From a virus, in the IMG/VR virus record IMGVR_UViG_3300027396_000022, positions 1 to 64,000 of that record: a DNA stretch of 64,000 bases, one strand, 5' to 3'. The notes beneath the pieces were generated by a model. The model searched no databases. It was not told where the DNA came from and saw nothing but the letters and a program-made list of their open reading frames with translations. The position numbers and the translations under genes were made by a program. Below are positions 36,483 through 64,000 of the stretch, one piece after another. Position 1 is the stretch's first letter. Every line of letters starts with the position of its first letter.

Positions 36483-38807
36483 ATGGCCGACCTTAAAATT
36501 TCTCAACTTACAGAACTTGCTGCCGCTGATTTGGCAAGCGATGATGTGTTGGCTGTTGTTAATCTTGGCACTGGAGAAACGCGAAAAATCAAGGCCACTT
36601 CATTAATTAATAGAAGCGTAATTTTTCTTTCTGGCAGTACCATTTCTGGAAGTGCTGTTAATTTTAGTAGCGTTACTATTAGTGGAACATCTTTAGCAAG
36701 CGGCACAGTTTCGTCTGGTAATATTGCGTTTAATTCAATTACTGCTCAATTATTGGCAGACAATAGCGTCAATGTAGTAGACAGCGCTCTGCCAGCGTCT
36801 GGTGAATTTTTAGGGCAATTTGCTACTACAACTGGAGATGATTTTATTTATGCATGGGATGGATCATCTTGGTCTCCTATTAAAGCGGCTGGATCTATTG
36901 CTTCTGTTAGTGGTGTAGCATCTGGCATTGTAAATATTGCTTCTATTACAACTAGCGGAAATGCCGTCATTAGTGGTTATTTATCTGCCACTACTTCCGG
37001 CTCTCAATTCCTAGCTGGGCCGACTGGAGCTGGAGGATCAGTATATTATCGCCCTATTGAATCTTCCGATCTTCCCATTGCTACCACGGCCCAAGCGGGA
37101 GCTGTCATTATCAATGGAAATGGCCTGACGCTAAGTGGCAACACTGTTGCCATTGACAATTTTATTTCCACTGCTTCTGGCTTTTTAGGCGTTGCAGTTA
37201 ATGAATATGGCTTGATTACTCATACCAGGGCTGTTGTTGGAGCGGATCTCCCCATTGCTCAATCTGGAATTACTGGAGCGGTTCAGCCCGGTACTGGCCT
37301 TGATGTGGATGGTGTGGGAACTATTGGCCATTCCAACTCCATTGCATCTGGAGTGGTAAACGGCATTACATTTGATACTGAAGGGCACATTACAAATGCC
37401 ATCCCATTAATTGCAGCAGATATTCCAAATCTTGATGCCAGCAAGATAACGACTGGCACCCTTGACAATGCGCGCATAGCTGCTCAAAGTATTGTGGGCG
37501 CCAAACTGGCCGATAGGTCTACGGCGCAATTCGGTGATAATCAACCCACTGCAGAATATATTGGCCAGCTTTATTTTAATAGCCTTTCACGAGATATTTA
37601 TATTTGGGACGGCAACGTTTGGCAGCCGATTGGTATTTCAGTTGGTGAAATTGTATTCGCCGGTACATACGATGCAGGTACCAATTTAGTTGCTTCTGTG
37701 ACCAGCGATGGTTCTGCTGTTGGCTTAGTAGTTGGACAAGCACTGCCTGCTGCCGCCACTGCAAATAATAGATATTATCTTGTTGTTTCGGAAGCAGGCA
37801 CTGGCACTGGTAATGCACCAAATGTAGCGCTTGCACCTCCAGATATTATTCTTTCCAATGGAAGCGCATGGACTGAAATTGACGTTAGTCAAACTCTTAC
37901 TAACGTAACAGCAAACCAAGTTTCCTATACGCCCGCTGGAAACATTGCTGCAACAAATGTACAAGCGGCATTGGATGAATTAGATAATGAAAAGCTTGCC
38001 GTAAGCGGCGGGACAGTTACGGGAGTAATTACCCTTAGCAATACAAGTAGTGGCATTGCTTTTGAAGGCACTACTGATAATGCTTTTGAGACTTTACTCA
38101 ATGCTGTAGATCCAACCGCCGACAATACAATATTATTACCAAACCTTAGTGGCACATTAATTACCACCGGAGATACGGCCACAATTAGTGGTGTCATGAT
38201 TGCTAGTGGCACTATTACTAACGCCAAAATCAGTCCAACTGCGGCTATTGACGGAGCAAAAATTCAAGCAGCAAGCACGACGACGAGTGGCGTTGTTGTG
38301 TTAGTGGATTCAACTAGCAGCACAAGCACGTCTACTGCCGCCACTCCGAATTCAGTTAAGACTGCTTATGATCTAGCAAATGCAGCGCTACCATCATCTG
38401 GTGGCACAATGACAGGAGCAATTACATTTGCCTCTGGACAAACTATTAGCGGATATGCACAACTAGCGAGTGCGCAAAGCTTTACTGCGGCTCAGCGGGG
38501 TTCAGTTGTTAGCGTTGCTGGAAGCGGAACTGTAACGCTTAATTTAGCATTGGGCAATAATTTTGCTGCCACATTGAGTGGAACCACTACTTATGCATTG
38601 CCGTCTGGAATGACTGCGGGCCAAAGCGGGGCTTTAGTGCTAACGCAAGATGGCACAGGAAGTCGCCTGGTTTCCTTCTCTGGATGGAAATTCCCTGGCG
38701 GGACAGCTCCAACTGCCACTACAACGGCATCGGGAGTTGACGTGGTTGTTTATTACGTCGAAAGTGCTTCTAGAATTAGCGCTCGCATGGTTAATGATGT
38801 GAAGTAG
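36483..38807 (+). CDS. Long tail fibre / fibre-base protein
   Basis: MADLKISQLT start, Ser/Thr/Gly/Ala repeats, AATPNSVKTAYDLA, QDGTGSR C-terminal domain. Confidence 0.85.
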   Translation: MADLKISQLTELAAADLASDDVLAVVNLGTGETRKIKATSLINRSVIFLSGSTISGSAVNFSSVTISGTSLASGTVSSGNIAFNSITAQLLADNSVNVVDSALPASGEFLGQFATTTGDDFIYAWDGSSWSPIKAAGSIASVSGVASGIVNIASITTSGNAVISGYLSATTSGSQFLAGPTGAGGSVYYRPIESSDLPIATTAQAGAVIINGNGLTLSGNTVAIDNFISTASGFLGVAVNEYGLITHTRAVVGADLPIAQSGITGAVQPGTGLDVDGVGTIGHSNSIASGVVNGITFDTEGHITNAIPLIAADIPNLDASKITTGTLDNARIAAQSIVGAKLADRSTAQFGDNQPTAEYIGQLYFNSLSRDIYIWDGNVWQPIGISVGEIVFAGTYDAGTNLVASVTSDGSAVGLVVGQALPAAATANNRYYLVVSEAGTGTGNAPNVALAPPDIILSNGSAWTEIDVSQTLTNVTANQVSYTPAGNIAATNVQAALDELDNEKLAVSGGTVTGVITLSNTSSGIAFEGTTDNAFETLLNAVDPTADNTILLPNLSGTLITTGDTATISGVMIASGTITNAKISPTAAIDGAKIQAASTTTSGVVVLVDSTSSTSTSTAATPNSVKTAYDLANAALPSSGGTMTGAITFASGQTISGYAQLASAQSFTAAQRGSVVSVAGSGTVTLNLALGNNFAATLSGTTTYALPSGMTAGQSGALVLTQDGTGSRLVSFSGWKFPGGTAPTATTTASGVDVVVYYVESASRISARMVNDVK

Positions 38808-38817
38808 GAGAAAACTA

Positions 38818-38961
38818 ATGATTCCAGGAAATATTAATTCTTTACTGCTTGCTGCCGATGCAGCGCCTACTGGTTATAGTATCTCACGTTCACTGCGGTT
38901 CAACAGTAGTGACAGTGACTTGTGGCAAAACCTTTGTAATACACAGGAGGCAGCAAAATGA
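38818..38961 (+). pseudogene. Truncated tail-fibre N-terminal stub (47 aa)
   Basis: MIPGNINSLLLAADAAPTGYSISRSLRFNSSDS-DLWQNLCNTQEAAK*; RBS ggag; N-terminus homologous to next gene. Confidence 0.7.
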
Positions 38962-40487
38962 CTATCCCAGGAAGCGCAATATCTCTTCTTCTTGCAGGCG
39001 CAGCTACCGACCCTAACCTTGTCGAGATCTACGCCTGGGGCGGTGGCGGTGGGAGCGGCTATGCAGGTGGATCAGGTGCTGGCGGAGGCGGTGGTGCGGT
39101 TTACGCAACTGCTGTAATAAGCCCATCTCAGGTTTACAACGTCATTGTCGGTGGCGGCGGTTTAACAATGGCACCCAATGCAGGCACGGGCGGCACCGTG
39201 TCCGGCGGCGGTGGATTAGCTGGCACAAGTGGCTATGGCGGCCAAGGCGGCGGATATTCAGGGATTTTTATTGGCGCTGCAGCAACCCAAAATGCCGCGC
39301 TTGTTATTGCCGGTGGTGGTGGTGGTGGCGCTTATGAAGGTGCTGCCGGTGGCGCTGGTGGTGGATCTACAGGTGCCGCAGGAGGCAGCGGAGCTGCTGC
39401 TGGTGGCGGAGGCGGAACGCAAAGTGCAGGTGGCACCTCTTCGCATTCGGGTGTTGGCACTGCGCTGAAAGGAGGCGATTGCGGAACATCGGGAGACGGT
39501 GGAGGCGGCGGCGGTGGAGGCGGCGGTTATTGGGGCGGCGGTGCTGGCTCTGGAGCAAACCCTGGCTCAGCCGGTGGTGGCGGTTCTGGGTATATCAACA
39601 CGCTGCAAACACTAACCGGCACGCTTTACGCAGGTTCTGGTGCTACTCCAGGAAATAGCGGCAGTTCTTTTAGAGGAAGCTATGGCAATGGCGGGGCCAG
39701 CGGCGCGAACAACGGCTTGCAAGGTGTTGTTATTATTCGCTATCAAGGCACACCGCGCTATACAGGCGGGACGATCACTCAATCTGGCGGGTACACAACA
39801 CATACATTTACAGCAAATGGCTATCTAAATCTGAATACGGTTCTTTTGATGCCATTCAAGACATCGGCAACTGCAGACCATTCCCCCATTCCAAAGACAG
39901 TCACCATGAACGGTACTGTCACGATTTCATCGACTCAGTCAAAGTATTATGGTGCTAGCGCCTATTTCTCCAATGGAAACTGGCTGTCTGTCGCCGCTTC
40001 AAACGATTTTCTTTTTGCAGCTAATGATTTTACGATGGAATTGTGGATTTACCCAACCACAAACGCTTATGATATCTTTGGTGCTCTGGGGGGAAAACTT
40101 GCGCTTGGCTTGATTATTGGCAATTCATATAACTTTTCCAGGGCCGATGGAACAATCACTTTTGCCGACGACGGCTCGGGCGGCATTGTTACTAATTACC
40201 CGAATCAAAACTCAGTGAGCGGGCCAATGGTGGTCAACCAATGGCAGCACCTTGCGTTTGTCCGCAGTGGCACGTCATTTTTGATATTTAGAGACGGTCA
40301 GCTTTTAAGCACCACAACTGTCAGCTCTTCCAATAATAACGTCGGCAGCAGTTCTCTCGCCATGGGAATTGGGCGTTTAACTGGATCAACCAATAGGCCA
40401 GTCACTGGATACATCCAAGATCTTGCTGTTTATAAGGGTTATGCAAAATACACCGGAACGTTTACGCCTCCAGGTCCCCTTACATAA
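38958..40487 (+). CDS. Receptor-binding/tail fibre protein, glycine-rich + LamG/ConA-like domain
   Basis: GGGGG repeats; FTMELWIYP...NQWQHLAFVRSG...GYIQD..VYKG.AKYT. Confidence 0.85.
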   Translation: MTIPGSAISLLLAGAATDPNLVEIYAWGGGGGSGYAGGSGAGGGGGAVYATAVISPSQVYNVIVGGGGLTMAPNAGTGGTVSGGGGLAGTSGYGGQGGGYSGIFIGAAATQNAALVIAGGGGGGAYEGAAGGAGGGSTGAAGGSGAAAGGGGGTQSAGGTSSHSGVGTALKGGDCGTSGDGGGGGGGGGGYWGGGAGSGANPGSAGGGGSGYINTLQTLTGTLYAGSGATPGNSGSSFRGSYGNGGASGANNGLQGVVIIRYQGTPRYTGGTITQSGGYTTHTFTANGYLNLNTVLLMPFKTSATADHSPIPKTVTMNGTVTISSTQSKYYGASAYFSNGNWLSVAASNDFLFAANDFTMELWIYPTTNAYDIFGALGGKLALGLIIGNSYNFSRADGTITFADDGSGGIVTNYPNQNSVSGPMVVNQWQHLAFVRSGTSFLIFRDGQLLSTTTVSSSNNNVGSSSLAMGIGRLTGSTNRPVTGYIQDLAVYKGYAKYTGTFTPPGPLT

Positions 40488-40500
40488 GGCATGTCAATTC

Positions 40501-40524
40501 TTCAATTACGCCCGCGCCCGCTGA
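40501..40524 (+). pseudogene. Orphan C-terminal remnant of another fibre gene (FNYARAR*)
   Basis: ttc aat tac gcc cgc gcc cgc tga; resembles a fibre C-terminus that I recall from related phages. Confidence 0.45.
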
Positions 40525-40542
40525 CCCCACTAGAGAACAAGG

Positions 40543-41397
40543 TTAAAGCGTCGGCATTTCATAGTCCTGCGTTGTATTGCAGTAGTGCTTCCAAATAACC
40601 TCAGCCGTATTGCCGGCCCACTTTGCGACTTGCGCCACGGGTATTCCTGCCTCAATCCACCGGCTGATTGCTGTGTGGCGCAGATCGTAAGGCCGGTAAC
40701 GGTGACTCGTTAATCCAGCAGTGTGCAATTCCTTGGCTCTGTCATAGAAAAAACTCTGGAACGCATACCTGTTGTACGGGAAAATATATTCATTGTCCTT
40801 GTCTACGGAATCAAGAATTTCTAAACACTTTTCGTTTAAAGGTACAACACGTTTCTTGTTTGTTTTTGTAGAAAACTTCAGGCCATGCGTAAGGGTGTAA
40901 TTGCAATGGATCAATAACTTCCCATCCTTTAGGTCAGTCCACTTGGCAGCGCGAACTTCACCTGTACGCATTGCTGTCTGGAGCATAAATTCAGAGTAAG
41001 CCGACCAACGTGCGCCACATTTTGTTTGGCGAGCTTCTAGAGCAGTGAGTAAAAGCGCTACTTCGCTGCGTGGAATTACGATGATTTCTTCATCCATCTG
41101 GGGCGCCTTAGGCATCCGAAAACTGGCAATCGGATTTTTAGGCAGGTAGGCAATGTCTTCGCTGCTGGCCCAGCGATAAAGGGCCTTGACATACATAGCC
41201 ACCCTGCGGCTGGACTTGACGGGCTGCTGGCTCAAAACCCATGTAAGAACCTGCCTGCCTTGCTCCAGTTCTGTAACCGGACAGCGACCGATCCACTTGT
41301 CGACTTGCCTGTAGTCCGCCATGAGACTGGTGGGACACAAGACAGCAGAACGCTCTGCGTGGAACTCGGCCCATGCGCTTTGGAGGGTGTGTGGCAC
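40543..41397 (-). CDS. Tyrosine recombinase/integrase
   Basis: TAMRTGE (R), KT.K.R.VPL, YDLRHT (Y in place of H in HxxR), AGN.......HY. Confidence 0.9.
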   Translation of the reverse strand: MPHTLQSAWAEFHAERSAVLCPTSLMADYRQVDKWIGRCPVTELEQGRQVLTWVLSQQPVKSSRRVAMYVKALYRWASSEDIAYLPKNPIASFRMPKAPQMDEEIIVIPRSEVALLLTALEARQTKCGARWSAYSEFMLQTAMRTGEVRAAKWTDLKDGKLLIHCNYTLTHGLKFSTKTNKKRVVPLNEKCLEILDSVDKDNEYIFPYNRYAFQSFFYDRAKELHTAGLTSHRYRPYDLRHTAISRWIEAGIPVAQVAKWAGNTAEVIWKHYCNTTQDYEMPTL

Positions 41398-41461
41398 AGT
41401 AGTCGCCTACAGGGCCGAGTAAAGTACCGCTATACGTGCCTCCTGTCTAGGTCCAGTACAG

Positions 41462-41971
41462 ATGTTCCTGTTAGACGGCAAGCCACTGAGCCCAGATGTG
41501 GCGTTCACCCACGACGGTGTTCAGTACCCCGCCAACTGGCTCCGGCTTGCTACTCCCGAGCAGCGTGCAGCGATCGGCATCACCGAGGTGCCCGATCCCG
41601 CTCCAGTCGATCAGCGCTTCTACTGGGATACAGGCATCCCCAAGGACCACACCCAACTGGTCGAGCAGTGGACGCAGCAGACCCGCACCACCGCCAACAC
41701 CCTGCTGGCACCAACGGATTGGATCATCATCCGCGAGGCTGACAACGGCAAACCTGCTGATCCCGTGCTACGCACCTGGCGCGAGGAAATCCGCCTTGCA
41801 TCAGGCAGCAAGGTCTACGAAATCAAGCAGACAGCTGACACCGCTGCACTAGCTGCTTACATTACCGGCGCCGACTACCCAGCTTGGCCCAGTGATCCCT
41901 ACGCTCCTGCTCAGCCTGCTCCTACTGATGGGGTGGAGTTTTCTGGCAATGGCGTCACTAGCGGATTCTGA
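41462..41971 (+). CDS. Tail fibre assembly/chaperone-like protein
   Basis: YPANWLRL, LLAPTDW.I.R..D, WR..IR. Confidence 0.75.
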   Translation: MFLLDGKPLSPDVAFTHDGVQYPANWLRLATPEQRAAIGITEVPDPAPVDQRFYWDTGIPKDHTQLVEQWTQQTRTTANTLLAPTDWIIIREADNGKPADPVLRTWREEIRLASGSKVYEIKQTADTAALAAYITGADYPAWPSDPYAPAQPAPTDGVEFSGNGVTSGF

Positions 41972-41973
41972 TC

Positions 41974-42111
41974 ATGGCGGTAAAAAGTAAAACAGCTCTT
42001 GGGCGCGTCGAGCACAAAGCCGGACGTCCAAAAACAACTTCACAAGGTTTTGGTCAGCACAGCCGTCCACGCCGTCGCGGCAAGAAAAAGCTGGTCGGCC
42101 AAGGGCGCTAA
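41974..42111 (+). CDS. 45-aa basic peptide (not in ORF track)
   Basis: MAVKSKTALGRVEHKAGRPKTTSQGFGQHSRPRRRGKKKLVGQGR. Confidence 0.6.
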   Translation: MAVKSKTALGRVEHKAGRPKTTSQGFGQHSRPRRRGKKKLVGQGR

Positions 42112-42142
42112 ATTAGTAAAAAGGTCGGCGGTATGCCTCGCA

Positions 42143-42564: not shown

Positions 42565-42842
42565 AAGCTGACACGGTATGGCTGGCGCGATTTGGCCAGA
42601 AAACTTGGCGTGATCAACTGCGTAAGGCTGCGCAAGATTACAAGTTTGAAAAAACGCTGGGTCCACGGCTAGATCGCGCTGAGGCCGATTGGCATAAGGC
42701 ACAACCACAGGAACCGGCGCCTGTCATCGTGCATGAACTACCCGATCCTGAGCTACAGACTGGTGATAGCCGTTTGCTTGGCGGCGCCATGAGTATTCAC
42801 GCACCTTGGAGCGATGACGCAAAACGCAATCAGGCTGATTGA
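42552..42842 (+). CDS. -1 frameshift extension of holin-like protein
   Basis: C-CCA-AAG slippery site; 96-codon open -1 frame without an early start codon. Confidence 0.6.
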   Translation, partial: PKALKADTVWLARFGQKTWRDQLRKAAQDYKFEKTLGPRLDRAEADWHKAQPQEPAPVIVHELPDPELQTGDSRLLGGAMSIHAPWSDDAKRNQAD

Positions 42843-43863
42843 TCTGTTTCGGTATTACAAGGCATTACCGCATCAGATGGCTGCAATTACGGAATTGGAA
42901 TCCGTGATTTCAAAGGCGAATCCGCATATCTTTAGCCGTGATCAGAGCTGGTTCAAAACGTGGAGTCAAAGCGGAAAACAGGAAGACAATGATCTACAGC
43001 CAGCACTGGAGCTGATTAAGAAATTTGAAGGTTCCAGGCTTGAGGCGTATTTATGTCCGGCGAATGTCTGGACAATCGGTTATGGCCACACTGGCCCGAA
43101 CGTAAAGCCTGGGCTGAAGATCACGCAGGCAGATGCAGAGGCGTTATTGCTGTCTGATGTTGAGCGCTTTGCGCGTGCTGTTGATACGTGGATCAAGGTA
43201 AAACTGAGCAATAATCAACGTTGCGCCCTGATTAGTTTTACGTTCAATGTGGGCATTGGTGCGCTGCAGGAAAGCACACTGCGTAAGCGTTTGAACAACG
43301 GCGAGGATGCCGTCAAGGTGGCAATGGAAGAGCTGCCACGGTGGAACAAAGGTGACAGCAAGATCCTTGAGGGTTTGGTGCGGCGTCGCAAGGCAGAGGT
43401 TGATTTGTTTTGCCGTGGCGTGAAGCCTTTGACTGATGATGTGAAGTTAACGCCCAATAAGCCGTTTAGCTTTAAGGTGACGCCACACATTGCCTATGGC
43501 GAGCTGGCATTAAATGAAGAGGCCAGACGTTTTACTAAGCAACATCAGTGCGATACGGCGATTGTTCTGTGTAATTTTCTTGAAAAGGCTCGCGTTGCGT
43601 TTGGCAATAAACCCATTGTGATTACCAGTGGATATAGACCGCCGAAGGTAAATGCATCTGTAGGCGGTGCATCTAGATCGGAACATCTTTACGATGCGCC
43701 TGATACTGGAGCTGTTGATTTTTACATTGAAGGCGTCAATATTTACGATCTTCAGGAATGGTGCAAGGCTCACTGGCCGTTCAGCTTGGGGCTAGGTGCG
43801 CCAAAAGGTTTCGTCCACTGTGGAATCCGCCCCGGTCGGCCTAAAGTCGTTTGGATTTATTGA
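42814..43863 (+). CDS. Endolysin: GH24 lysozyme + peptidase M15A
   Basis: IKKFEG...AYLCPA.VWTIGYGHT, GL.RRR..E; ITSGYR...N..VGGA..S.H...A.D, FVH. Confidence 0.9.
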   Translation: MTQNAIRLIDLFRYYKALPHQMAAITELESVISKANPHIFSRDQSWFKTWSQSGKQEDNDLQPALELIKKFEGSRLEAYLCPANVWTIGYGHTGPNVKPGLKITQADAEALLLSDVERFARAVDTWIKVKLSNNQRCALISFTFNVGIGALQESTLRKRLNNGEDAVKVAMEELPRWNKGDSKILEGLVRRRKAEVDLFCRGVKPLTDDVKLTPNKPFSFKVTPHIAYGELALNEEARRFTKQHQCDTAIVLCNFLEKARVAFGNKPIVITSGYRPPKVNASVGGASRSEHLYDAPDTGAVDFYIEGVNIYDLQEWCKAHWPFSLGLGAPKGFVHCGIRPGRPKVVWIY

Positions 43864-54840: not shown

Positions 54841-55472
54841 GCCTGCTCGCCCCTAGCTTTGCCTTTCGCTCCGTCACGGGCTACTATAAAGGAATGGCGA
54901 AGCTTACGACCGCGCAGTTCGTTGAACGCGCAAAGGCCGCCCATGGCGACCGCTTTGATTATTGCTGTTCTGATTACCAAGGCGCACTCACCAAAATCGC
55001 CATCATTTGCCCTTTTCACGGGTTGTTCATGCAATTGCCTACAAATCACTGGCGCGGAGCGGGCTGCAAGGAGTGTCGAAAAACAAGCAGCCCAGAAATT
55101 CGTCGCGCCAATGCAGCCAAAAGGCAAGCAAAATTGCGTGAGCGCCAGCGGCATACGCCTGAATACAAAATTGCCAATTTTTCCCGTGTTCGCCTTTACA
55201 AGGCTTTGTCTTCGCAGGGCATAAGAAAAAATTGTCGCACTGCCGATTGGCTTGGCTGTTCACCTGCCGAACTTCGTGATTACATTGCTGCCAAGTTTGA
55301 GGATGGTATGACTTGGGATAATTTTGGGCAATGGGAGGTTGACCACATTCGCCCTTGCGCCAGCTTTGATCTAACCGATCCCGTACAACGACTTGCTTGT
55401 TTTCATTTCACAAACCTTCAACCACTTTGGAGAAACGATAATCGCCGCAAAAGCGCCAAGATGCTGGAATGA
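54837..55472 (+). CDS. HNH homing endonuclease (probable start 54894)
   Basis: HGD.FDY...ICP.HG.F; GMTWDN.G.WEVDHI.P...HFTNLQPLW...N..K. Confidence 0.88.
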   Translation: MSLLAPSFAFRSVTGYYKGMAKLTTAQFVERAKAAHGDRFDYCCSDYQGALTKIAIICPFHGLFMQLPTNHWRGAGCKECRKTSSPEIRRANAAKRQAKLRERQRHTPEYKIANFSRVRLYKALSSQGIRKNCRTADWLGCSPAELRDYIAAKFEDGMTWDNFGQWEVDHIRPCASFDLTDPVQRLACFHFTNLQPLWRNDNRRKSAKMLE

Positions 55473-56794
55473 GCCCATCCATACTTGACGGCTGTCCTGG
55501 CGGCTTTCTGCTTGAAGCCCCGATTACAGTTTGCGACGAAAGGGATTGGACTCCGTTTGCGAGGCGCCTTTACGACTCTCTTACTCCTCCACAACGCGAG
55601 GTATGGGACGCGCCAGAACGCTTCAAACTTCTTTGTTCTGGTCGTCGCTTTGGTAAAACATACCTTTGTATTGCCCGTTTAGTCGCTTGGGCGATTGAGC
55701 ATCCAAATTCGCTCAATTGGTACTGCACTCAAACCTATAAATCGGCAAAACAAATCGCATGGCGTCAGCTTCGTGCCATGGTACCGCCCGAAATGTTTGC
55801 CAGAAAAAATGAATCCGAACTGTCGGTTGAATTAAGCAACGGCAGCGTGATCGCCTTGAAAGGCGCTGAATCAGCCGATGCCCTCCGTGGCGTGTCGCTT
55901 AGCAGCCTGATCGTTGACGAAGCCGCTTACGTCAAGCAGGAAGCATGGGAGATGGTGCTACGCCCAGCGCTGTCAGACCAAGGCGGTCCGGCATGGTTCA
56001 TTACAACGCCTGCTGGCCTCAACTGGTTTCACGACTTGTGGGAACAGGCGCAAGATCAGCCGGACTGGTCAACCTTCAGTTACACCACCATTGAAGGTGG
56101 CAACGTTCCTGAAGATGAAGTTGAAGCGGCACGCCGCACGCTTGACGACCGCACATTTCGGCAGGAATACCTCGCCAGCTTTGAAACCCTGTCCGGTCGT
56201 GTTTACCCAGACTTCAACGACGACAATATTTCTGATGAAGTGCGCGATACCGGCGGCCCGATCCTGTGGGGCACTGACTTCAACGTGAGCGTGCTGGCCG
56301 GTGTGCTTGGTAGCCGTGTTGGCGACACCCTCCATATATGGGATGAGGTGTCCGTGACGCAAACCAATACTGATGAGGTGTGCGCCATGCTGCGTGATCG
56401 GTTCAGGGATCGGAAGCTGATCGCTTACCCGGACCCAACCGGCAGTGCTCGTAAGACTTCATCGGCTGGCCGCACGGACCATGAGATCATTCGCCAATAC
56501 GGGTTCGGCTGCGTCAGTCCCAAGGCGCCGTGGTCGGTGAAGGACAAGATCAACGCCACCAACAGTTTGATCCGTAACGCCAACGGCCAGATCCGCCTGT
56601 TTGTCCATCCACGCTGCAAGAACACAATTAAGGCGCTGCGCAACGTGACCTACAAGCAGGGTGCTGACGATTACGTGATTGACAAGTCGGCCGGGATCGA
56701 GCACTGGACAGACGGGTTGGGGTATTTGGTCATGTCTGAGTTCAACCCGCTGTACGCCAACGCCGGCAAGGGCACGGGCATCAGGCTGTATTGA
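55469..56794 (+). CDS. terL: Terminase large subunit (phage B)
   Basis: GRRFGKT, LRG, VDEAA, TTP.G.NWF, G.DFN, YPDP.G, H..D.LGY. Confidence 0.95.
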   Translation: MSPSILDGCPGGFLLEAPITVCDERDWTPFARRLYDSLTPPQREVWDAPERFKLLCSGRRFGKTYLCIARLVAWAIEHPNSLNWYCTQTYKSAKQIAWRQLRAMVPPEMFARKNESELSVELSNGSVIALKGAESADALRGVSLSSLIVDEAAYVKQEAWEMVLRPALSDQGGPAWFITTPAGLNWFHDLWEQAQDQPDWSTFSYTTIEGGNVPEDEVEAARRTLDDRTFRQEYLASFETLSGRVYPDFNDDNISDEVRDTGGPILWGTDFNVSVLAGVLGSRVGDTLHIWDEVSVTQTNTDEVCAMLRDRFRDRKLIAYPDPTGSARKTSSAGRTDHEIIRQYGFGCVSPKAPWSVKDKINATNSLIRNANGQIRLFVHPRCKNTIKALRNVTYKQGADDYVIDKSAGIEHWTDGLGYLVMSEFNPLYANAGKGTGIRLY

Positions 56795-57182: not shown

Positions 57183-58667
57183 ATGTACACCGGTTTCAAC
57201 GCATACGACCGGCTTCTGACGCGCAAAGCCACGCAGGTGCAAGACCCCAATAACGCTTGGGCTGCACAGGAACCACATTGGATCTTGATTGAAGATCTGA
57301 TGGAAGGCACCTTCGGGATGCGCCGCAAGCATCGGCGTTACCTTCCGCAAGAACCACGCGAGCAAGACGAAAGTTACGACAACCGCCTAGCCCGTAGCGT
57401 TTGCCCGCCGTATTACCAGCGGCTTGAGCGGATGCTGGCCGGCATGTTGACCCGCAAGCCTGTACGCCTTGACGACGTACCTGATCTGATCCGCGAACAA
57501 CTGTTTGATGTAGACCTGCAAGGCAATGATCTAAACATTTTCGTTTACGAATTAGCCCGCAAGATTGTGCGTTACGGCCACGCTGGCGTGTTGGTTGATT
57601 TCCCGAGCCAAACAGACGATGAAATCCAAAACATCACGGATATTGCATCGTTGCGTCCCTACTGGTGTACTTATGTGCCACGCGACATTTTGGGTTGGCG
57701 CTCTGAACTGGTCAACGGCGCACAGAAGCTAACCATGCTGCGCTTGCGTGAGTTAATCGTTGTTCCCGACGGCGATTTTGGTGAGAAATACTTAGAGCAG
57801 ATCCGCGTACTTAAACCCGGCTCTTACGAACTGCACCGGCAATCGGATACCAAAGGTCAATACGAAATGGTGGCAGAAGGCACCACCAGCCTTGATTACA
57901 TTCCTTTTTCCGTTGCCTATTCCAACCGTGTTGGGCTGCTTGAATCGCGCCCGCCGCTGGAAGATATTGCCGAGCTGAACCTAAAGACTTACCAAATCCA
58001 GAGTGATCTGGACAACATGCTGCATATCAGCGGCGTGCCAATGCTTGCCTTCTACGGCTTCCCATCATCTGCCGAGGAAGTATCTGCCGGCCCTGGTGAA
58101 GCCATTGCCTTTCCTGCTGAAGGCCGTGCTGAGTACATCGAACCGGAAGGCAAGAGCTACGAAGCGCAGTTCCGCCGTCTTGAACAGCTTGCCGGACAAA
58201 TCAATGAACTTGGCCTGTCTGCTGTCCTAGGTCAAAAGCTCAGTGCTGAAACTGCCGAAGCCAAGCGGATCGACCGCAGCCAAGGCGACAGCACCATGAT
58301 GGTGATCGCACAGCAAGTGCAAGACCTGATTGATAACTGCCTGCGGTATCACGCTGATTACCTTGGTCAACAGCAATCAGGCAGCAGCTATGTCAATCGG
58401 GATTTTGTGGGCGCACGCCTTGAACCCGCCGAAATCCTTGCACTGTTGCAGCTCTACACCGCAGGCACCATCACACAGAAAACACTGTTGGATCAACTGG
58501 CGCAAGGTGAAGTGCTGGGTGATGACTTTGACGTAGAAGAGGAACTGGAGGGCACTCAATCGGGTGGCTTGATTGAGCTTGGTGGCCCTGAAAACCTTGG
58601 CGCTGAAGATGTAACTAGCGAAGAAATGATGGCTGAAAATAACGATGACGCTATTGCTGAACAATGA
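57183..58667 (+). CDS. Portal protein, DUF4055-like
   Basis: YLPQE..E....Y..RL, PPL.DIA.LN...YQ..SD, AETA. Confidence 0.9.
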   Translation: MYTGFNAYDRLLTRKATQVQDPNNAWAAQEPHWILIEDLMEGTFGMRRKHRRYLPQEPREQDESYDNRLARSVCPPYYQRLERMLAGMLTRKPVRLDDVPDLIREQLFDVDLQGNDLNIFVYELARKIVRYGHAGVLVDFPSQTDDEIQNITDIASLRPYWCTYVPRDILGWRSELVNGAQKLTMLRLRELIVVPDGDFGEKYLEQIRVLKPGSYELHRQSDTKGQYEMVAEGTTSLDYIPFSVAYSNRVGLLESRPPLEDIAELNLKTYQIQSDLDNMLHISGVPMLAFYGFPSSAEEVSAGPGEAIAFPAEGRAEYIEPEGKSYEAQFRRLEQLAGQINELGLSAVLGQKLSAETAEAKRIDRSQGDSTMMVIAQQVQDLIDNCLRYHADYLGQQQSGSSYVNRDFVGARLEPAEILALLQLYTAGTITQKTLLDQLAQGEVLGDDFDVEEELEGTQSGGLIELGGPENLGAEDVTSEEMMAENNDDAIAEQ

Positions 58668-59974
58668 CGCAATCAGGCGTAACACCTCGCCTGCTCAACG
58701 TTGAGCAATTCAAGCGGCGGATCAACCGCAAAGATCCTGTTGCCAACATCTACCGCAACGCCATTGATCTAAACCGTTTCAGTAACGCTGTCGCCGGTCA
58801 GATTGTTCGTGATTACAACAGCATCATCTTGAGTGCCGTTGACGATCTAAAACGTATTGACCTTGGCGTACCCACGGCAGGCGGTGGCATCGTCAGCCCA
58901 GCATCAGTTCAGGCGCAACGGCTTCGTGTCCTATTGGCTCAACTGAGGGAATCGCTGGATAGTTGGGCAGAACGAAGCACGGCATACGCAGCCACTGAAC
59001 TGCAGGGTCTAGCCGAGCTTCAAACAGAATTTGTCACTGATCAATTGCGGCTTGCTGTCGCTGGCGGTGAGGCTGGCGCTCGTGGCATTGAGCCAAGCGT
59101 TGTTGCTCAGCAGGCAGTCAACACCGTTGAAGTGGCACCAAACTTTGCCGCCACAGTGGCCACTGTTGATCCAACGGATATCAACTTCACGTTGCCTGGT
59201 ACAGGCGGCTTCAACCTTACGGCTGGCCAAGGTGCCGCGATCACGTTGCCGAATGGGCAGGTTATTGAGAAGACATTTCGCGGTTTAGCCGAATCGCAGG
59301 CGCAGCGTTTCAACACCACAATTAGAACAGGCATTCTTGCTGGCGAGCCAACACCACAGATTGCACGGCGTTTGATCGGTAACCTTGATTTCGGGCAACT
59401 GGCCAAGACCGCAAAACAGCAAGCCTTAGCCGGTGGCGAGCTGATCAAGATGGCTGACCATCAGGTATTGACCGTTGTGCGTACAAGTGTGCAGCAGGTG
59501 GCCAACACAGCCAGTCAAAATGTCTATCAAGCCAATCAAGACGTAACTAAGAAATACCGTTACGTTGCCACGCTGGATAGCCGCACCTCAGCAATTTGCC
59601 GCAGTCTTGACGGGAAGGAATACGTCTACGGCAAGGGACCACAACCGCCTGTTCATTTCAACTGCAGGTCAACAACCATCCCAATCGTTGATTACCGCGC
59701 CCTTGGTCTGCGTCCGCCAGAGGAAGTAATCGGTGAAGGCAAGCGTGCTGCAGAAGGTGGTCAAGTTTCAGCCAGTACAAACTACGGTCAGTGGCTACAG
59801 AAGCAACCAAAGGCATATCAGGAAGAGGTGCTCGGCAAATCACGCGCCGCCTACTTTGACCGTCTTAGCCAGAAGTTTGGCCCGCAACAGGCATTAAGCC
59901 GGATGGTGCGTGAAGACGGATCTGAAGTGCCACTTAAAGTGTTGCAAGAACGCTACGGTTCAAACAATGGCTAA
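58664..59974 (+). CDS. Head morphogenesis protein (SPP1 gp7 / Mu gpF family)
   Basis: YVATLDSRTS.IC..LDG, PP.HFNCRST. Confidence 0.9.
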   Translation: MTQSGVTPRLLNVEQFKRRINRKDPVANIYRNAIDLNRFSNAVAGQIVRDYNSIILSAVDDLKRIDLGVPTAGGGIVSPASVQAQRLRVLLAQLRESLDSWAERSTAYAATELQGLAELQTEFVTDQLRLAVAGGEAGARGIEPSVVAQQAVNTVEVAPNFAATVATVDPTDINFTLPGTGGFNLTAGQGAAITLPNGQVIEKTFRGLAESQAQRFNTTIRTGILAGEPTPQIARRLIGNLDFGQLAKTAKQQALAGGELIKMADHQVLTVVRTSVQQVANTASQNVYQANQDVTKKYRYVATLDSRTSAICRSLDGKEYVYGKGPQPPVHFNCRSTTIPIVDYRALGLRPPEEVIGEGKRAAEGGQVSASTNYGQWLQKQPKAYQEEVLGKSRAAYFDRLSQKFGPQQALSRMVREDGSEVPLKVLQERYGSNNG

Positions 59975-60152
59975 AAAGCCGACCAAGGCCGAAAAGAAGA
60001 TTGGCAAGGTAATGAAGGAATACAAGGAAGGCACGCTGCACAGCGGCAAGCCAGGAAAAGGCAAAGGCCCAACTGTTAAAAGTCGCAAACAGGCAATCGC
60101 CATTGCACTGAGCGAAGCCGGCAAGGCACGCAAACCCAAGGGTAAAAAGTGA
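59967..60152 (+). CDS. DUF6496-like basic protein
   Basis: KIGKVMKEYKEGTLHSGK...KQAIAIALSEA. Confidence 0.8.
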   Translation: MAKKPTKAEKKIGKVMKEYKEGTLHSGKPGKGKGPTVKSRKQAIAIALSEAGKARKPKGKK

Positions 60153-60382
60153 TGGCTATCGGTATCGGTTCCCGCGTTAGCTGGACTTATCAAGGCACCA
60201 CCACCTATGGCGTAGTCACCGGCAAGGCTGGGCGTCGCGCCAGTATCACCGGTCCATCCGGCGGCACTGTCACTCGTGTTGGCACTGACGATGACCCGGT
60301 ATTGCGGATTGAATCAGAATCAACCGGTAATCCTGTTTTGAAAAAGCGGTCAGAATTAAAAGAAGCGCCGAAGCGTAAATGA
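60152..60382 (+). CDS. DUF2945 / Tudor-like small protein
   Basis: GSRVSW......YG.V...DDP...I.S..TG..VLK..S.L. Confidence 0.6.
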   Translation: MAIGIGSRVSWTYQGTTTYGVVTGKAGRRASITGPSGGTVTRVGTDDDPVLRIESESTGNPVLKKRSELKEAPKRK

Positions 60383-60576
60383 AAGGCAAGATCTGGCAGG
60401 GCGGTTGCACTTACCTCAAGTGCTCGGATGGCATGATTGAGGGCCGTTTTGTCTTTCCTTGCCCAAATAGCCCTGAGGTGCTTGGCGCCTTAATGGGAAG
60501 ACTGGCTGAGGGCGTAGAAGTCATCACCTGTACCGAGGATGATGATGAAGACGACAACGAGGATGACGATGATTGA
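60379..60576 (+). CDS. Small protein with acidic tail
   Basis: Overlapping operon ORF. Confidence 0.55.
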   Translation: MKGKIWQGGCTYLKCSDGMIEGRFVFPCPNSPEVLGALMGRLAEGVEVITCTEDDDEDDNEDDDD

Positions 60577-60844
60577 GTATCGCGGCGAAAAGTTTGACGG
60601 CTACAACAAGCCCAAACGCACGCCTGACCATCCAACCAAGTCGCACGCTGTCTTGGCCAAGGAAGGCGACAAGGTAAAGCTGATTAGGTTCGGTCAGCAG
60701 GGCGTATCAGGCTCACCACCACGAAAATCAGAATCGGAATCAGACAAAATACGAAGGGCATCATTTAAGGCCAGGCACGCCAAGAACATCGCCAAAGGCA
60801 AGATGTCTGCCGCATTCTGGGCTGACCGCAGTAAATGGAGCTAA
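60569..60844 (+). CDS. Basic phage protein
   Basis: GYNKPKRTP.HP.KSH.VLAK....KLIRFGQQG...SFKARH. Confidence 0.75.
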   Translation: MIEYRGEKFDGYNKPKRTPDHPTKSHAVLAKEGDKVKLIRFGQQGVSGSPPRKSESESDKIRRASFKARHAKNIAKGKMSAAFWADRSKWS

Positions 60845-61035
60845 CTGTGTTCTTGTTTGTGAATCCAGTCCTTTAGGCCCATCACATACGCCCGCAATGC
60901 CTGCGCATTCCTTGCGTGCCACGGGTCACCCGTCGCCAAATACTCCATCATGTGCAGATCCACTGCCTTCAAACAGTGGTGAATAATTGGGTTCCATGGT
61001 CCGCGTACCGGTGTATCCCACTCGCGCCGTGACAT
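60841..61035 (-). CDS. Small phage protein, homolog of 5499..5726
   Basis: TPVRGPWNPIIHHCLKAVDLH...DPWH. Confidence 0.75.
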   Translation of the reverse strand: MSRREWDTPVRGPWNPIIHHCLKAVDLHMMEYLATGDPWHARNAQALRAYVMGLKDWIHKQEHS

Positions 61036-61092
61036 GACGTGACAAGGTGTAAACCTACCTATACACTCTGATCGTTACCCTACGGGTCATTC

Positions 61093-61788
61093 ATGTCTGA
61101 AGAGCAACTGCAGGAAGCTACGCCGACTGCATCCGGTGATGATCTTGACGCGCTTAAACGCAGCGTTGAGGCCCTAGAACGCAAAAACTTTGAGCTGATT
61201 GGCAAGCTTAAAGAAGCCAAAGAAAAAACGCCCAATTTGCCCGATGGTTTGAACGTTCAAGAACTTGTTGACTTCAAGCGAAAGAAGGAACAGGAAGAGC
61301 TTGAGTCGAAAGGCAAATACGACGAAGCCCTGAAACAATACGCTCAGCAATTTCAAGAGCGTGAAGACGGCTACAAAAAGCGTATTGCCGAGCTTGAATC
61401 ACAATTGACGGTCAATCAGCTTGATAATCGTGTCGTTGCAATTCTTGCTGAACAGGGTGCTCACAACCCACACGATGCGCTGCGCCTAGTGCGTGATCAG
61501 TTAAAGCTTGATGACAGCGGCAATCCCATTGCTGTTGATGGTTACAACGAAATTCCCATGGATCAGTGGGTCGAACGCCTTAAAGCTGAACGTGGCTATC
61601 TGTTCAAGGCCCCTAACGTCAAGGGCTCTGGCGCACCTGTCGGCACAAAGGTCAGCAGCACCGATATCCCGGTCGGTATCAAAAACCCATTCCTGCCCGA
61701 AAACTTCAACCTGACCGAGCAGTCACGCCTGTTCCGCACGGATCGTGATCTGTACGAAAAGTTGAAAACTGCAGCGGCTTCTGCTTAA
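61093..61788 (+). CDS. Capsid scaffolding protein
   Basis: Coiled coil, GSGAP, KNPF....NLTEQ.RL; upstream of MCP. Confidence 0.8.
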   Translation: MSEEQLQEATPTASGDDLDALKRSVEALERKNFELIGKLKEAKEKTPNLPDGLNVQELVDFKRKKEQEELESKGKYDEALKQYAQQFQEREDGYKKRIAELESQLTVNQLDNRVVAILAEQGAHNPHDALRLVRDQLKLDDSGNPIAVDGYNEIPMDQWVERLKAERGYLFKAPNVKGSGAPVGTKVSSTDIPVGIKNPFLPENFNLTEQSRLFRTDRDLYEKLKTAAASA

Positions 61789-61870
61789 GATGTAACCGTT
61801 AAACGCGAATGGTTACGCCGTTCCGTTATTGGGTTACGCCCGCAAACAGCAAATTCCCTGAGGATTCATC

Positions 61871-62893
61871 ATGGCGACTCTTCGCTCTGATGTCATCATC
61901 CCCGAGATTTTTACTCCGTATGTGATCGAGCAATCGACTCTGCGGAATCAGTTTCTTGCCAGCGGCGTTGTGCAGCCCATGGCGGAACTGAATGCAACCG
62001 AGGGTGGTGACTTCGTAAACGTGCCTTTCTGGAAGGCAAACCTGTCTGGCGACCTGGAAGTTCTTACCGATTCCACCAGCCTGACTCCTGGCAAAATCAC
62101 TGCTGACAAGCAAGTTGGCGTGATCCTGCACCGTGGTCGTGCCTTTGAGGCCCGTGACCTTGCTGCTCTGGCCGCAGGTTCTGACCCCATGGCTGCCATC
62201 GGTCAAAAAGTTGGTGAGTACGTTGCCAACCAACAGCAGGCCGACCTGTATAAGTGTCTGGAAGGTGTGTTCGGCAGCCTGACCGGCTCTGACTCCCCTG
62301 CTTTTGATGCTCTGCGTTTTGACACCAGCGGCGCAACTGCTCTTGGTCCCCGCCAGGTGGCTAAGGCTCGCGCAATCCTGGGTGATCAAGGCGACAAGCT
62401 GACCGCTGTGGCCATGCACTCGGCTTGCTACTACGACCTCGTGGAGCGCAAGGCGATTGACTACGTGACCAACACGGAAGCACGCCTGAGCACTGCTGCA
62501 ACTGGCGCCAGCACCATCAACGCTGTTGGCGGTTCTGTGGCTGCTGCCTACGGTGACGTTCGTGTTCCGACCTACATGGGTCTGAATGTGATTGTCTCTG
62601 ACGACATCAGCAACAGTGCCGGCAACTATGCCTGTTATTTCTTCACCTCTGGCGCTATTGCCTCCGGTGAGCAGGCTGCCATGCGTACTGAAACCGACCG
62701 CGATATCCTCGCCAAGTCGGATGCCATGTCGCTGGACATGCACTACATCTACCACCCGGTAGGTGCTAAGTGGGCCGTGACCACCACCAACCCGACCCGC
62801 GCACAGCTGGCCACCGTTGGTAACTGGTCGAAGGTGTACGAAACCAAGAACATTGGAATCGTGCGTGCCACCATCACTTCCAACTTTGATTGA
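61871..62893 (+). CDS. Major capsid protein (phage B)
   Basis: D.I.PE.F..Y, GG..VN.PFW, AGSDPMAAI, ETDRDIL; biased codons. Confidence 0.9.
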   Translation: MATLRSDVIIPEIFTPYVIEQSTLRNQFLASGVVQPMAELNATEGGDFVNVPFWKANLSGDLEVLTDSTSLTPGKITADKQVGVILHRGRAFEARDLAALAAGSDPMAAIGQKVGEYVANQQQADLYKCLEGVFGSLTGSDSPAFDALRFDTSGATALGPRQVAKARAILGDQGDKLTAVAMHSACYYDLVERKAIDYVTNTEARLSTAATGASTINAVGGSVAAAYGDVRVPTYMGLNVIVSDDISNSAGNYACYFFTSGAIASGEQAAMRTETDRDILAKSDAMSLDMHYIYHPVGAKWAVTTTNPTRAQLATVGNWSKVYETKNIGIVRATITSNFD

Positions 62894-62904
62894 GGTAATT
62901 AGTC

Positions 62905-63318
62905 ATGCCTTCCTCAATCTTTGAACTGACTTCTGACCTTGCTGTCCTGAACATCAAGGCTTCCCAGAAGACTGTTACTGCCGCCAGTAACGAAGCAACC
63001 ACCCTCACTGCTGCACAGTGTGTTGAGGGCGTTGTGACCATGACCCCTTCTACCGGTCGTGCTCTGACCACCCCCACGGGCGCTGAACTCAAGACCTTCT
63101 TTGGTGGGCAACTTGAAATCGGCACTAGCTTTGAGCTGACCGTGGTGAATGTGGCTGCCTCCACTCACGCAATCACCTTGACCGCTGCCGCTTCTGGCAT
63201 CACCCTGGGTGGCGTGGCTGGCATGGCCACTGTTGCTGCTGCTACCAGCGCAACTTATACGTTCGTTTGCACCGCAGTGGGCACCCCTGCCTTCACTGTG
63301 TACCGCAAGAACAGCTGA
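62905..63318 (+). CDS. Putative capsid decoration protein
   Basis: Ala/Thr rich, directly after MCP. Confidence 0.55.
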   Translation: MPSSIFELTSDLAVLNIKASQKTVTAASNEATTLTAAQCVEGVVTMTPSTGRALTTPTGAELKTFFGGQLEIGTSFELTVVNVAASTHAITLTAAASGITLGGVAGMATVAAATSATYTFVCTAVGTPAFTVYRKNS

Positions 63319-63524
63319 TGGGTATGCTCGCCTTTCGGCGGCTGCGTGAACAGGAGGCTCTGGCTACGGCTGGGGCCTCTTTTTCTAATGCAGAGCCTAC
63401 GCCTACACTTGAAGTAACAGAAGATCAGCCGCTGTCTACCGATGGCAATAACAATCGACGCAACGGTGGGCGGCGCAAACGCCAACAGCTATCTGACACT
63501 GGTAGCAGCGGAAGCGATCATTGA
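63318..63524 (+). CDS. Small hypothetical protein
   Basis: MGMLAFRRLREQEA; TGATG overlap. Confidence 0.45.
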   Translation: MGMLAFRRLREQEALATAGASFSNAEPTPTLEVTEDQPLSTDGNNNRRNGGRRKRQQLSDTGSSGSDH

Positions 63525-64000
63525 GGGTTTTGTTCAGGATGACGATGTAACCGCCTGGGCATCGGCCACCACTGATCAAAAAAACCGGGCGTTGTTTACT
63601 GCCGCGCAACGCCTTGATCGTGAGCGTTTTCTTGGTGCTCGGGCAACAGATACGCAGGCTTTGCAGTGGCCCCGTACTGGCGTGCGCAAGCCTGATACCT
63701 ATATCAATACTTATGCCGTCGGCTTTCCGTTCCGCATCACCACGGATTATTTCACCGACACCGAAATTCCAACGCAGATCAAATACGCACAATGCGTGCT
63801 GGCAACGTATTTGAACAACAACAAAGATGGGATGGCTCTGAGCGGACTGGAGGATTACAAGTCCGTGTCCATTGGCAGCCTTAGCGTCACCACTGCAGGC
63901 GCTAGCAGCACAGCCACTGGCGTTGATCGCATCCCGCCCATTGTGGAGCGGTATTTAACCGGTCTTAGAATCAGTGGACCGGGCAACATTGCTATTCGCC
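63442..64000 (+). CDS. Head-tail connector (DnaT-like family), runs off window
   Basis: MAITIDATVGGANANSY.T, QALQWPR, IP..IK.AQ..LA. Confidence 0.75.
   Translation, partial: MAITIDATVGGANANSYLTLVAAEAIIEGFVQDDDVTAWASATTDQKNRALFTAAQRLDRERFLGARATDTQALQWPRTGVRKPDTYINTYAVGFPFRITTDYFTDTEIPTQIKYAQCVLATYLNNNKDGMALSGLEDYKSVSIGSLSVTTAGASSTATGVDRIPPIVERYLTGLRISGPGNIAIR

Follow-up and report, generated by a model that had tools for sequence, protein, structure and literature searches.

Tailed phages are reportedly modular mosaics in which fiber and host-range modules are swapped between otherwise unrelated genomes. In lambda, the fiber genes are followed by a short spacer and a convergent integrase, and Int-promoted recombination between att sites gives rise to tandem lysogens. 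Among cultured cyanophages, S-CBS4 (NC_016766, 69,420 bp) and the siphovirus S-2L (MW334946, 45 kb) offer the comparisons used below. When co-existing viruses have highly similar regions, assemblers are documented to produce chimeric contigs, an error that was more common for metaSPAdes than for MEGAHIT (PMC5610896; Roux et al., 2017).

We analyzed positions 1-64,000 (the window) of the viral record IMGVR_UViG_3300027396_000022, whose full length is 78,772 b. The original prediction described two distinct phage genomes fused at a tail-fiber/integrase locus, either as a phage-in-phage cointegrate or through misassembly. Logan unitigs of four short-read river runs (X1, X2, X16, and X21) were compared with the record, and sequencing depths were taken from X1, X2, and X16.

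Two phage arms with different head modules

The left arm (1-38898, plus strand) is a fragment of an S-CBS4-like cyanosiphovirus, phage A, with genes for RNR, TerL, portal, a sugar cluster, protease/scaffold, capsid, tail, and fiber. These include TerL A (6671-8041, minus strand; phrog_2, E = 2.6e-33), portal A (8619-10496, plus strand; Phage_portal_3/DUF1073, E = 3.6e-63), a DUF2213 protein (18715-19914), major capsid protein A (20493-21401, plus strand; PF09950, E = 3.1e-59), and a 774-aa distal tail fiber (36483-38807, plus strand; Phage_fiber_2 repeat, E = 3.6e-12). The portal is 70% identical to that of S-CBS4 over 99% of its length, the head-tail-fiber order is the same in both phages, and the relatives are similar in size. 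The predicted head genes and gene order common to both place phage A with the S-CBS4-like cyanosiphoviruses. The river lineage differs from S-CBS4, which has no integrase annotated in the inspected part (20-69 kb), in that a tyrosine recombinase lies 3′ of the fiber genes in L213, G018, and G022.

The phage A ORFs are 60-95% identical to, and colinear with, those of the A-type genomes G005, G006, and G008; ORFs between 2616 and 38807 follow the order of G005 17742-56503 and G006 12106-47062. These comparisons used protein synteny, DNA-level comparison with A-type genomes being too weak for use. Sixty-nine of the 114 G005 ORFs (~35 kb) are unmatched in the record, and long contigs with relatives of portal A measure 64-77 kb. 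Judged from gene content, the record contains only about half of an A-type genome, with a predicted size of ~75 kb for the whole of phage A. In cultured S-CBS4, the arm missing from the record carries endolysin, thymidylate synthase, exonuclease, Sak, and RecA-family ATPase genes. The record holds the left arm of phage A only.

The right arm, phage B, runs on the plus strand from 40542 through the end of the window at 64000 and on to record position 78645. It carries lysis, nucleotide metabolism, early, packaging, and head genes, with the tail genes beyond the window. We identified an endolysin (42814-43863, plus strand) that combines a lysozyme domain (PF00959, E = 8.4e-45) with an M15 peptidase domain (PF08291, E = 6.2e-20), TerL B (55469-56794, plus strand; Terminase_6N, E = 8.6e-17), portal B (57183-58667, plus strand; DUF4055), a Mu-F protein (58664-59974), a scaffold protein (61093-61788), and a Gp13-like major capsid protein (61871-62893, plus strand). 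The best cultured match to TerL B is that of S-2L (51% identity). S-2L is similar to phage B in size, but the similarity is low and, within what was compared, the tail module of phage B resembles that of phage A and not that of S-2L. Phage B is syntenic with two B-type records, G010 and G012, the latter 39,534 b long with terminal repeats and a CheckV completeness of 100%. TerL B has 274 relatives on viral contigs, the longest of which are 38-41 kb; the B-type relatives seen measure 38-46 kb.

Thus 1-38898 holds one head-and-tail set and 40542-64000 a different one. Domain matches, together with BLASTP between the sets, bear out the earlier description of two TerL, portal, scaffold/protease, and major capsid protein sets. 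In pairwise BLASTP, portal, capsid, and scaffold of set A had no match in set B, and the two TerL proteins aligned over 228 aa only (24.6% identity). The view that the two phages are unrelated holds for the portal, capsid, and scaffold genes but not for the distal tail modules (29.5-38.8 kb versus record 69.4-78.6 kb), which are colinear and 36-50% identical at the protein level. Fiber A, for example, is 49% identical to the 809-aa fiber of phage B (record 76134-78563). The predicted composition shift near the fiber locus was also evident. GC content is 0.463 in 1-38898, 0.531 in 38899-40541, and 0.522 in 40542-78645, and tetranucleotide profiles change at the same place.

An identical tail-fiber cassette in different backbones

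The arms meet at a 1,643-b cassette (38899-40541, plus strand) that shows zero differences among its contexts in phage A, phage B, and a third phage, D. The fiber stub and recombinase placed at this locus by the original prediction are both present. The stub (38818-38961, plus strand) encodes 47 aa, the N terminus of a resident gene truncated after RFNSSDS. It is followed by a gene for a 509-aa glycine-rich protein (38958-40487, plus strand) with a C-terminal LamG domain (Laminin_G_3, E = 4.3e-16) and PHROG baseplate/tail matches, which is likely a receptor-binding tail protein. Next comes an orphan 3′ remnant of the resident gene that ends in FNYARAR and a stop codon (40501-40524, plus strand), recognized by its sequence. 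Intact resident genes of 804-818 aa (MIPG...RFNSSDSAYL...FNYARAR-stop) occupy the position of the stub in the relatives L220, L221, and L223, and in over 10 related loci the full-length gene ends in the same FNYARAR-stop C terminus. A megablast search with 36-46 kb found nothing similar in collections of cultured phages and of E. coli.

In X1, X2, and X16, the cassette is a single unitig that spans exactly 38899-40541; the X21 unitig extends to 41221. There are 0 mismatches between the cassette and positions 1-1643 of contig L213 in reverse complement (L213rc), and both ends of the phage D contig, G002 (~83-84 kb), are 127-mers of the cassette. The flanks are only 65-75% identical between backbones. 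The occurrence of the cassette at 100% identity in at least three very different cyanophage backbones of one river suggests that a host-range module was exchanged very recently, in keeping with the earlier corollary that a shared module would imply recent exchange between different phages.

Both borders of the cassette fall on short islands that all resident genes conserve. Site-specific insertion may have caused these sharp borders, but homologous exchange at the islands explains them without a dedicated site. The most likely route would be recombination at two islands, RFNSSDS on the 5′ side and FNYARAR-stop plus ~17 nt on the 3′ side. As in tailed-phage mosaicism, an identical receptor-binding cassette is found in at least three backbones, with short conserved islands at its borders. 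The present case differs in that the exchange is seen in place while all 1,643 b are still 100% identical, and in that the central part of a resident gene has given way to the cassette, so that only its 5′ stub and 3′ remnant are left.

Immediately beyond the cassette lies the phage B allele of a predicted 284-aa tyrosine recombinase (40543-41397, minus strand; PF00589, E = 8.5e-17; phrog_1 integrase), whose catalytic domain scores 61.9 bits against a Pfam cut-off of 27.1. The phage A allele, on L213rc, is 72.6% identical. A 169-aa ORF (41462-41971, plus strand; weak PHROG tail fiber assembly match, E = 1.8e-4) accompanies the recombinase, and its homologs adjoin the recombinase in A-type loci, B-type loci, and phage D. 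An invertible segment or shufflon was rejected (no convincing inverted repeats in 38-44 kb, the best being 23 nt at 78%), as was an integron-like locus (recombinase and cassette are convergent rather than divergent).

Like lambda, the locus has a convergent integrase right after the tail-fiber region, making a joint mechanistically conceivable. One could therefore imagine tandem prophages in one host chromosome, with a lambda-like attachment site just past the 3′ end of the recombinase gene. Side-by-side integration would set the phage A fiber and the cassette directly before the phage B recombinase; the fiber genes, short spacer, and convergent integrase match the lambda arrangement, and the spacer of ~17 nt between the resident-gene stop and the recombinase stop is kept in many loci. 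We consider this highly improbable. A search of one genome from each of 185,579 bacterial and archaeal species, by a method that detects close relatives only, found no relatives of the recombinase. Neither the record nor any exit listed for the cassette node shows host genes or a junction with host DNA. The sole tRNA, a tRNA-Leu at 6110-6199, is far from the recombinase, and none adjoins it. Unlike lambda, the recombinase yielded no lysogen, attachment site, or host junction, and the data do not require lambda-like joining.

Assembly signature, depths, and alternative junctions

We favor, with a probability of roughly 0.87, the reading that the record is a chimeric de Bruijn-graph path that joins two separate cyanosiphoviruses through their common cassette. 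What the data show directly is the signature of the graph, how large each arm is and which genes it holds, the pattern of depths, and the existence of alternative junctions. The suggestion that misassembly through a shared fiber module was at least as likely as a cointegrate gained support from the signature, the depths, and the junctions.

At its very end (78646-78772), the record repeats the 127 b of 38899-39025 exactly; in a self-BLAST, the repeat extends over 133 b with two mismatches, both in the first 6 b. Phage B thereby forms a circle of 39,747 b that is closed by the cassette, and the loop length is that of complete phage B relatives (38-41 kb). Phage B is most likely a complete ~39.7-kb cyanosiphovirus with an S-2L-like terminase. 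As a check on a cointegrate, the original prediction had proposed looking beyond 64 kb for a second copy of the site followed by phage A sequence. The copy exists but is exactly the terminal 127 b of the record, with no phage A DNA after it. Two contigs from the same campaign, G001 and G002, begin or end with the 127-mer at 38896-39022, and the opposite end of G002 is the 127-mer at 40419-40545. L213 starts exactly at 38899. At 1,643 b, the cassette repeat exceeds the span of short reads. As in virome benchmarks, distinct genomes are joined at an exact repeat that exceeds reads or inserts in length, and the record resembles a SPAdes-type k=127 assembly whose path closes on its own k-mer. In contrast to those benchmarks, the repeat is a 1.6-kb cassette in very different phages rather than strain-level similarity, and different phage lineages are joined.

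These ends also bear on a genuine hybrid phage, with the structural arm of A on the genome of B, propagated as one ~79-kb virus. The length of 78.8 kb is near A-type genome size, and CheckV rates the record 100% complete. However, such a virus would require two complete unrelated packaging/head sets and two homologous tail sets, and, as the terminal 127-mer shows, the right part of the record forms a closed circle by itself. We regard the hybrid as the least probable of the readings considered. The CheckV score is a coincidence of lengths, 78.8 kb being close to the size of an A-type genome.

We compared depths across the junction. The unitig of the phage A left arm terminates at 38928, with depths of 19.4, 18.6, and 14.9 in X1, X2, and X16. 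In the same runs, the cassette unitig had depths of 49.7, 62, and 56, and phage B had depths of 33.1, 35.7, and 29.7. Phage B was thus 1.7- to 2.0-fold deeper than the left arm of phage A, and the cassette depth was approximately the sum of A and B plus a small remainder. Such a coverage discontinuity (here 15-19x versus 30-36x in three runs), together with a lack of spanning long reads, had been named beforehand as a result that would speak against a real cointegrate. The unequal depths also argue against tandem prophages and against a hybrid phage.

A real cointegrate would have the order A-left, cassette, B, cassette, A-right, formed by homologous crossover inside the cassette, which is identical in both phages, or by exchange that the recombinase mediates at a site beside its gene. 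Every junction that it needs occurs in the data, homologous tyrosine recombinases adjoin the cassette in both phages, making a joining mechanism conceivable, and it predicts the observed cassette depth. As that depth fits separate genomes and an A::B cointegrate alike, the depths show only that at least about half of phage B is unlinked to phage A. Both routes to a cointegrate nonetheless seem very unlikely. A and B are not equally abundant, and the record stops 127 b into the second cassette copy, with no phage A DNA after B and so without recipient DNA on both sides of B. The molecule would be ~115 kb, compared with 64-77 kb for A-type and 38-46 kb for B-type relatives, and would presumably be unpackageable by either head, as it exceeds all relatives. 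None of 33 loci with this recombinase family is on a contig of cointegrate size; the largest contig, 83.5 kb, carries neither head set. The cointegrate proposal is therefore left unsupported, the second site being a graph overlap and the depths of A and B differing.

The assembler also made another join through the same node. In L211, from a sister sample, the tail end of phage D is joined to the cassette and the phage B recombinase. This join conflicts with the contig of phage D itself, both ends of which are cassette 127-mers, so that it closes on the cassette. Paths through the node are thus arbitrary, and the D-to-B join is a further point against a real cointegrate. Another exit from the cassette at 40542 leads to the lysis side of phage D. 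In L213rc, the identical cassette is followed by an A-type recombinase allele and then by right-arm genes that are colinear with those of the A-type genomes G022 (75-93% aa identity), G018, G005, G006, and G008. L213 comes from a different sister sample, and its origin in the record's own sample is not demonstrable. In both G018 and G022, an A-type portal and a recombinase of this family lie together on one contig of normal size, without a B terminase. Phage D was rejected as the missing right arm of phage A, as it shares almost no genes with A-type genomes. No contig was found that contains the 44-mer at 61-104 and would extend the first bases of the record leftward.

The chimeric path most likely arose as follows. 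Phage A (~75 kb), phage B (~39.7 kb), and phage D (~84 kb) coexist in one river community, and in the k=127 graph the cassette forms one common node with several entries and exits. The assembler would enter this node from the phage A fiber gene, exit by the most abundant route, the phage B recombinase side, circle the phage B map once, and halt on meeting the same 127-mer again. The true path of phage A would lead from the cassette to its own recombinase allele and the right-arm genes, which appear as a separate contig in the sister sample. We infer that no molecule links the left arm of phage A to phage B. There is a small chance, in our estimate, that the join is real in some molecules, either as A::B cointegrates or as tandem prophages at one host site.

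Consequences for the record and for cyanophage exchange

Read literally, the record describes a virus of 79 kb that is "100% complete" and has two head modules, which would mislead statistics on genome size, taxonomy, and gene content. Dividing it at 38899/40541 is advisable and gives one partial phage of the S-CBS4 type and one complete phage of 39.7 kb. Most likely, the shared cassette is the sole real biology behind the fused record. Such sharing is ordinary in kind, and this is a clean case; it explains assembly breaks and mis-joins at this locus in the river community. If the join were true, it would give natural phage lineages a direct way to trade whole genome arms.

Two head modules and a closed loop in one record

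The window covers the first 64,000 b of a record that is 78,772 b long and is classed in IMG/VR as linear, with a CheckV completeness of 100%. Pfam and PHROGs searches confirmed that it carries two distinct packaging and head sets. The first belongs to phage A, an S-CBS4-like cyanosiphovirus (1-38898), and consists of TerL (6671-8041, minus strand), a Phage_portal_3 portal (formerly DUF1073; 8619-10496), a DUF2213 protein (18715-19914), and the capsid (20493-21401), with tape measure, tail tip, and a 774-aa fibre downstream. The second belongs to phage B, a ~40-kb cyanophage (40542 onward), and comprises TerL (55469-56794), a DUF4055 portal (57183-58667), a Mu-F protein between portal and scaffold, the scaffold (61093-61788), and the capsid (61871-62893). 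Between the sets lie a 47-aa stub ORF (38818-38961), a 509-aa glycine-rich LamG protein (38958-40487), a convergent tyrosine recombinase (40543-41397, minus strand), two small ORFs, an endolysin, and a dCTP deaminase.

The original prediction called the two packaging and head sets unrelated. Between A and B, portal, capsid, and scaffold gave no BLASTP match, and the TerL proteins share 24.6% identity over 228 aa. The distal tail modules qualify this picture: eight homologous gene pairs stand in the same order in both phages, 36-50% identical in protein and, in places, 65-70% identical in DNA. These homologous modules differ in GC content (0.434 at 29922-38807, 0.523 at 69733-78563), while the heads are unrelated. 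The composition shift noted near the fibre locus was borne out: GC content is 0.463 in 1-38898, 0.531 in the tail-fibre cassette joining the phages (38899-40541), and 0.522 in 40542-78645, and the tetranucleotide profile changes at the same position.

Comparing the record with itself, we found that its last 133 b (78640-78772) match 38893-39025, with both mismatches within the first 6 b, so the final 127 b repeat 38899-39025 exactly. In SPAdes-type de Bruijn-graph output with a largest k of 127, a cyclic path that meets a used vertex again ends in an exact copy of an internal 127-mer. Sister contigs also end in exact 127-mers of the same node, which supports this reading. The record thus consists of a stem (1-38898) and, joined to it, a loop (38899-78645; 39,747 b). 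A second site copy, expected beyond 64 kb, is present, but only as a graph overlap with no phage A sequence after it. A propagating hybrid phage with two head sets is implausible, and the closed loop also contradicts it.

Half of one phage and the whole of another

The loop agrees in size with relatives carrying the B terminase (274 loci in IMG/VR), whose longest contigs are 38-41 kb; one of these, G012 (39,534 b), is a 100% complete genome with direct terminal repeats. The gene set of the loop is full, with lysis, nucleotide metabolism, a Sak-like annealing protein, early genes, packaging, head, and tail. The nearest match to its terminase is that of cyanophage S-2L (51%).

Relatives carrying the A portal (345 loci in IMG/VR) have long contigs of 64-77 kb, several scored as 100% complete. 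By ORF-level synteny, 2616-38807 aligns to 17.7-56.5 kb of G005, a 74.5-kb relative, and the record lacks any counterpart for 69 of the 114 G005 ORFs (~35 kb). In the nearest cultured phage, Synechococcus phage S-CBS4 (69.4 kb; portal 70% identical), the arm missing from the record encodes an endolysin, thymidylate synthase, exonuclease, Sak, and a RecA-family ATPase. From these sizes, the synteny, and the missing ORFs, the record is half of one phage plus all of another, and it scores as 100% complete only because the lengths happen to agree.

Phage A also carries a tRNA-Leu (6110-6199, minus strand; anticodon TAA) with the RNR region on one side and the terminase on the other. Within its head module, with the portal region on one side and the protease and capsid genes on the other, is a cluster with glycosyltransferase-like genes (11162-16979); four of its genes (11162-14340) occur in G005 and are absent from two other A-type relatives, G006 and G008, and the others occur in all three. 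The left end of the record (1-23) is another branch point. The phage A unitig in river run X1 spans 23-38928, so independent assemblies interrupt the left arm at nearly the same point.

Several phages meet at the cassette

An exact 40-mer of the repeat occurred in three further IMG/VR contigs. Two of these, G001 and G002, represent phage D, a third and largely unrelated phage, and both terminate in 127 b equal to 38896-39022. The opposite end of G002 (IMGVR_UViG_3300024496_000030; 83,116 b) is the 127 b 40419-40545, followed by D lysis genes. With cassette 127-mers at both ends of G002, the phage D map closes through the same cassette. Phage D has no recombinase adjoining the cassette; its homologue of the 169-aa ORF that accompanies the recombinase in the record precedes a short fibre-like gene, on its upstream side.

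Two more contigs, L213 and L211, emerged when metagenomes were scanned for a 40-mer of the right end. L213 begins exactly at 38899 and has no mismatches to 38899-40541 over 1,643 b. Past the cassette it encodes a recombinase 72.6% identical to that of B, a homologue of the 169-aa ORF, and genes colinear with A-type right arms (75-93% amino acid identity to G022; colinear also with G018, G005, G006, and G008). In both G018 (63,978 b) and G022 (70,300 b), a single normal-sized contig holds an A-type portal together with a member of this recombinase family and lacks the B terminase. L213 thus represents the sequence that follows the cassette in phage A itself. In L211 (Ga0255178_1003152; 3,734 b, from a sister sample), the D tail end (100% identical to G002) leads through the cassette into the B recombinase (99.96%). 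This join conflicts with D's own contig, which closes on the cassette; thus, assembler paths through the node are arbitrary and tend toward the B exit.

The junction region is present in 24 riverine runs, and we placed Logan contigs from four of them on 36-44 kb. The phage A unitig stops at 38928, which is 38899 plus k-1, with depths of 19.4, 18.6, and 14.9 in runs X1, X2, and X16. The cassette is a single 1,643-b unitig, exactly 38899-40541, at 49.7, 62, and 56, and the long phage B unitig to its right is at 33.1, 35.7, and 29.7. A and B thus differ 1.7- to 2.0-fold, and the cassette approximates their sum plus a small remainder, which fits a further exit at 40542 carrying phage D sequence. 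Contigs from all four runs also contain a form of the cassette gene lacking 171 b in frame (39332-39504) in the glycine-rich repeat region, and several loose ends fall at 39307-39526. Both have the appearance of length variants or alternative alleles of this region.

The original prediction offered a phage-in-phage cointegrate or a misassembly through a shared fibre module. A true cointegrate requires the same junctions and yields the same assembly graph. The coverage discontinuity, which the original prediction named as refuting evidence, contradicts it as the main form; the depths prove only that a large part of phage B is not linked to A, because cointegrate mixed with free B would give identical sums. 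A cointegrate would also measure ~115 kb, while the A-type relatives seen all measure 64-77 kb and the B-type ones 38-46 kb, and the record offers it no positive support. We consider it very unlikely. The closed loop, the conflicting L211 join, and the continuation of A in L213 favor misassembly, and we put the probability that the A-B fusion is not a real feature at roughly 0.87.

A recurrently replaced locus beside the recombinase

Published work describes integrases as rare among Synechococcus siphoviruses (PMC6157547). Here they occur in both an S-CBS4-like and a 40-kb lineage: the recombinase family (40543-41397; L220-L248) adjoins the fibre region in ~40-kb B-type phages and in 64-84-kb phages, including the A-type G018 and G022. 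Read by eye, two of its usual catalytic positions seem to depart from the canonical residues (YDLRH, AGN...KHY). Two prophages in tandem at a single host site would also put the cassette of A ahead of B's recombinase, provided that the attachment site adjoins the 3′ end of the recombinase gene, as in lambda. We consider this arrangement very unlikely too: none of 185,579 bacterial and archaeal species genomes yielded a relative of the recombinase, neither host DNA nor a host junction is seen, and no tRNA lies near the recombinase.

In three loci with recombinases 99% identical (L220, L221, and L223), a single 804-818-aa gene separates fibre from recombinase, starting MIPG...RFNSSDSAYL and finishing ...FNYARAR*. 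In the record the middle of this gene is replaced. The 5′ stub ends after RFNSSDS, a new ORF with a similar N terminus follows, and an orphan FNYARAR* (40501-40524) is left ahead of the recombinase stop. The B-type G014 (IMGVR_UViG_3300027467_000358; L219/L216, 587-1967) and its relatives carry a different replacement at the same place; in G014, a 41-aa stub ending just after RFNSSDS is followed by a 293-aa glycine-rich ORF, a 125-aa ORF, and the recombinase. The locus between fibre and recombinase is a recurrent replacement hotspot.

The tract of 100% identity starts within the conserved RFNSSDS codons and stops after the conserved 3′ end plus ~17 nt. Outside these two islands, the A, B, and D flanks are only ~65-80% identical. 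Both phage types encode Sak-like annealing proteins. Probably, the cassette was exchanged by recombination at the two islands; the borders would then coincide without any need for a dedicated site of insertion.

The record is best divided into its two phages. The predicted exchange of a fibre module between very different phages stands, given the 1,643 b at 100% identity in L213 and the closure of phage D through the same cassette. When unrelated phages swap fibre modules, the result is classical mosaicism. The shared cassette is a real feature, and as module exchange it is of an ordinary kind, seen here at 100% identity.
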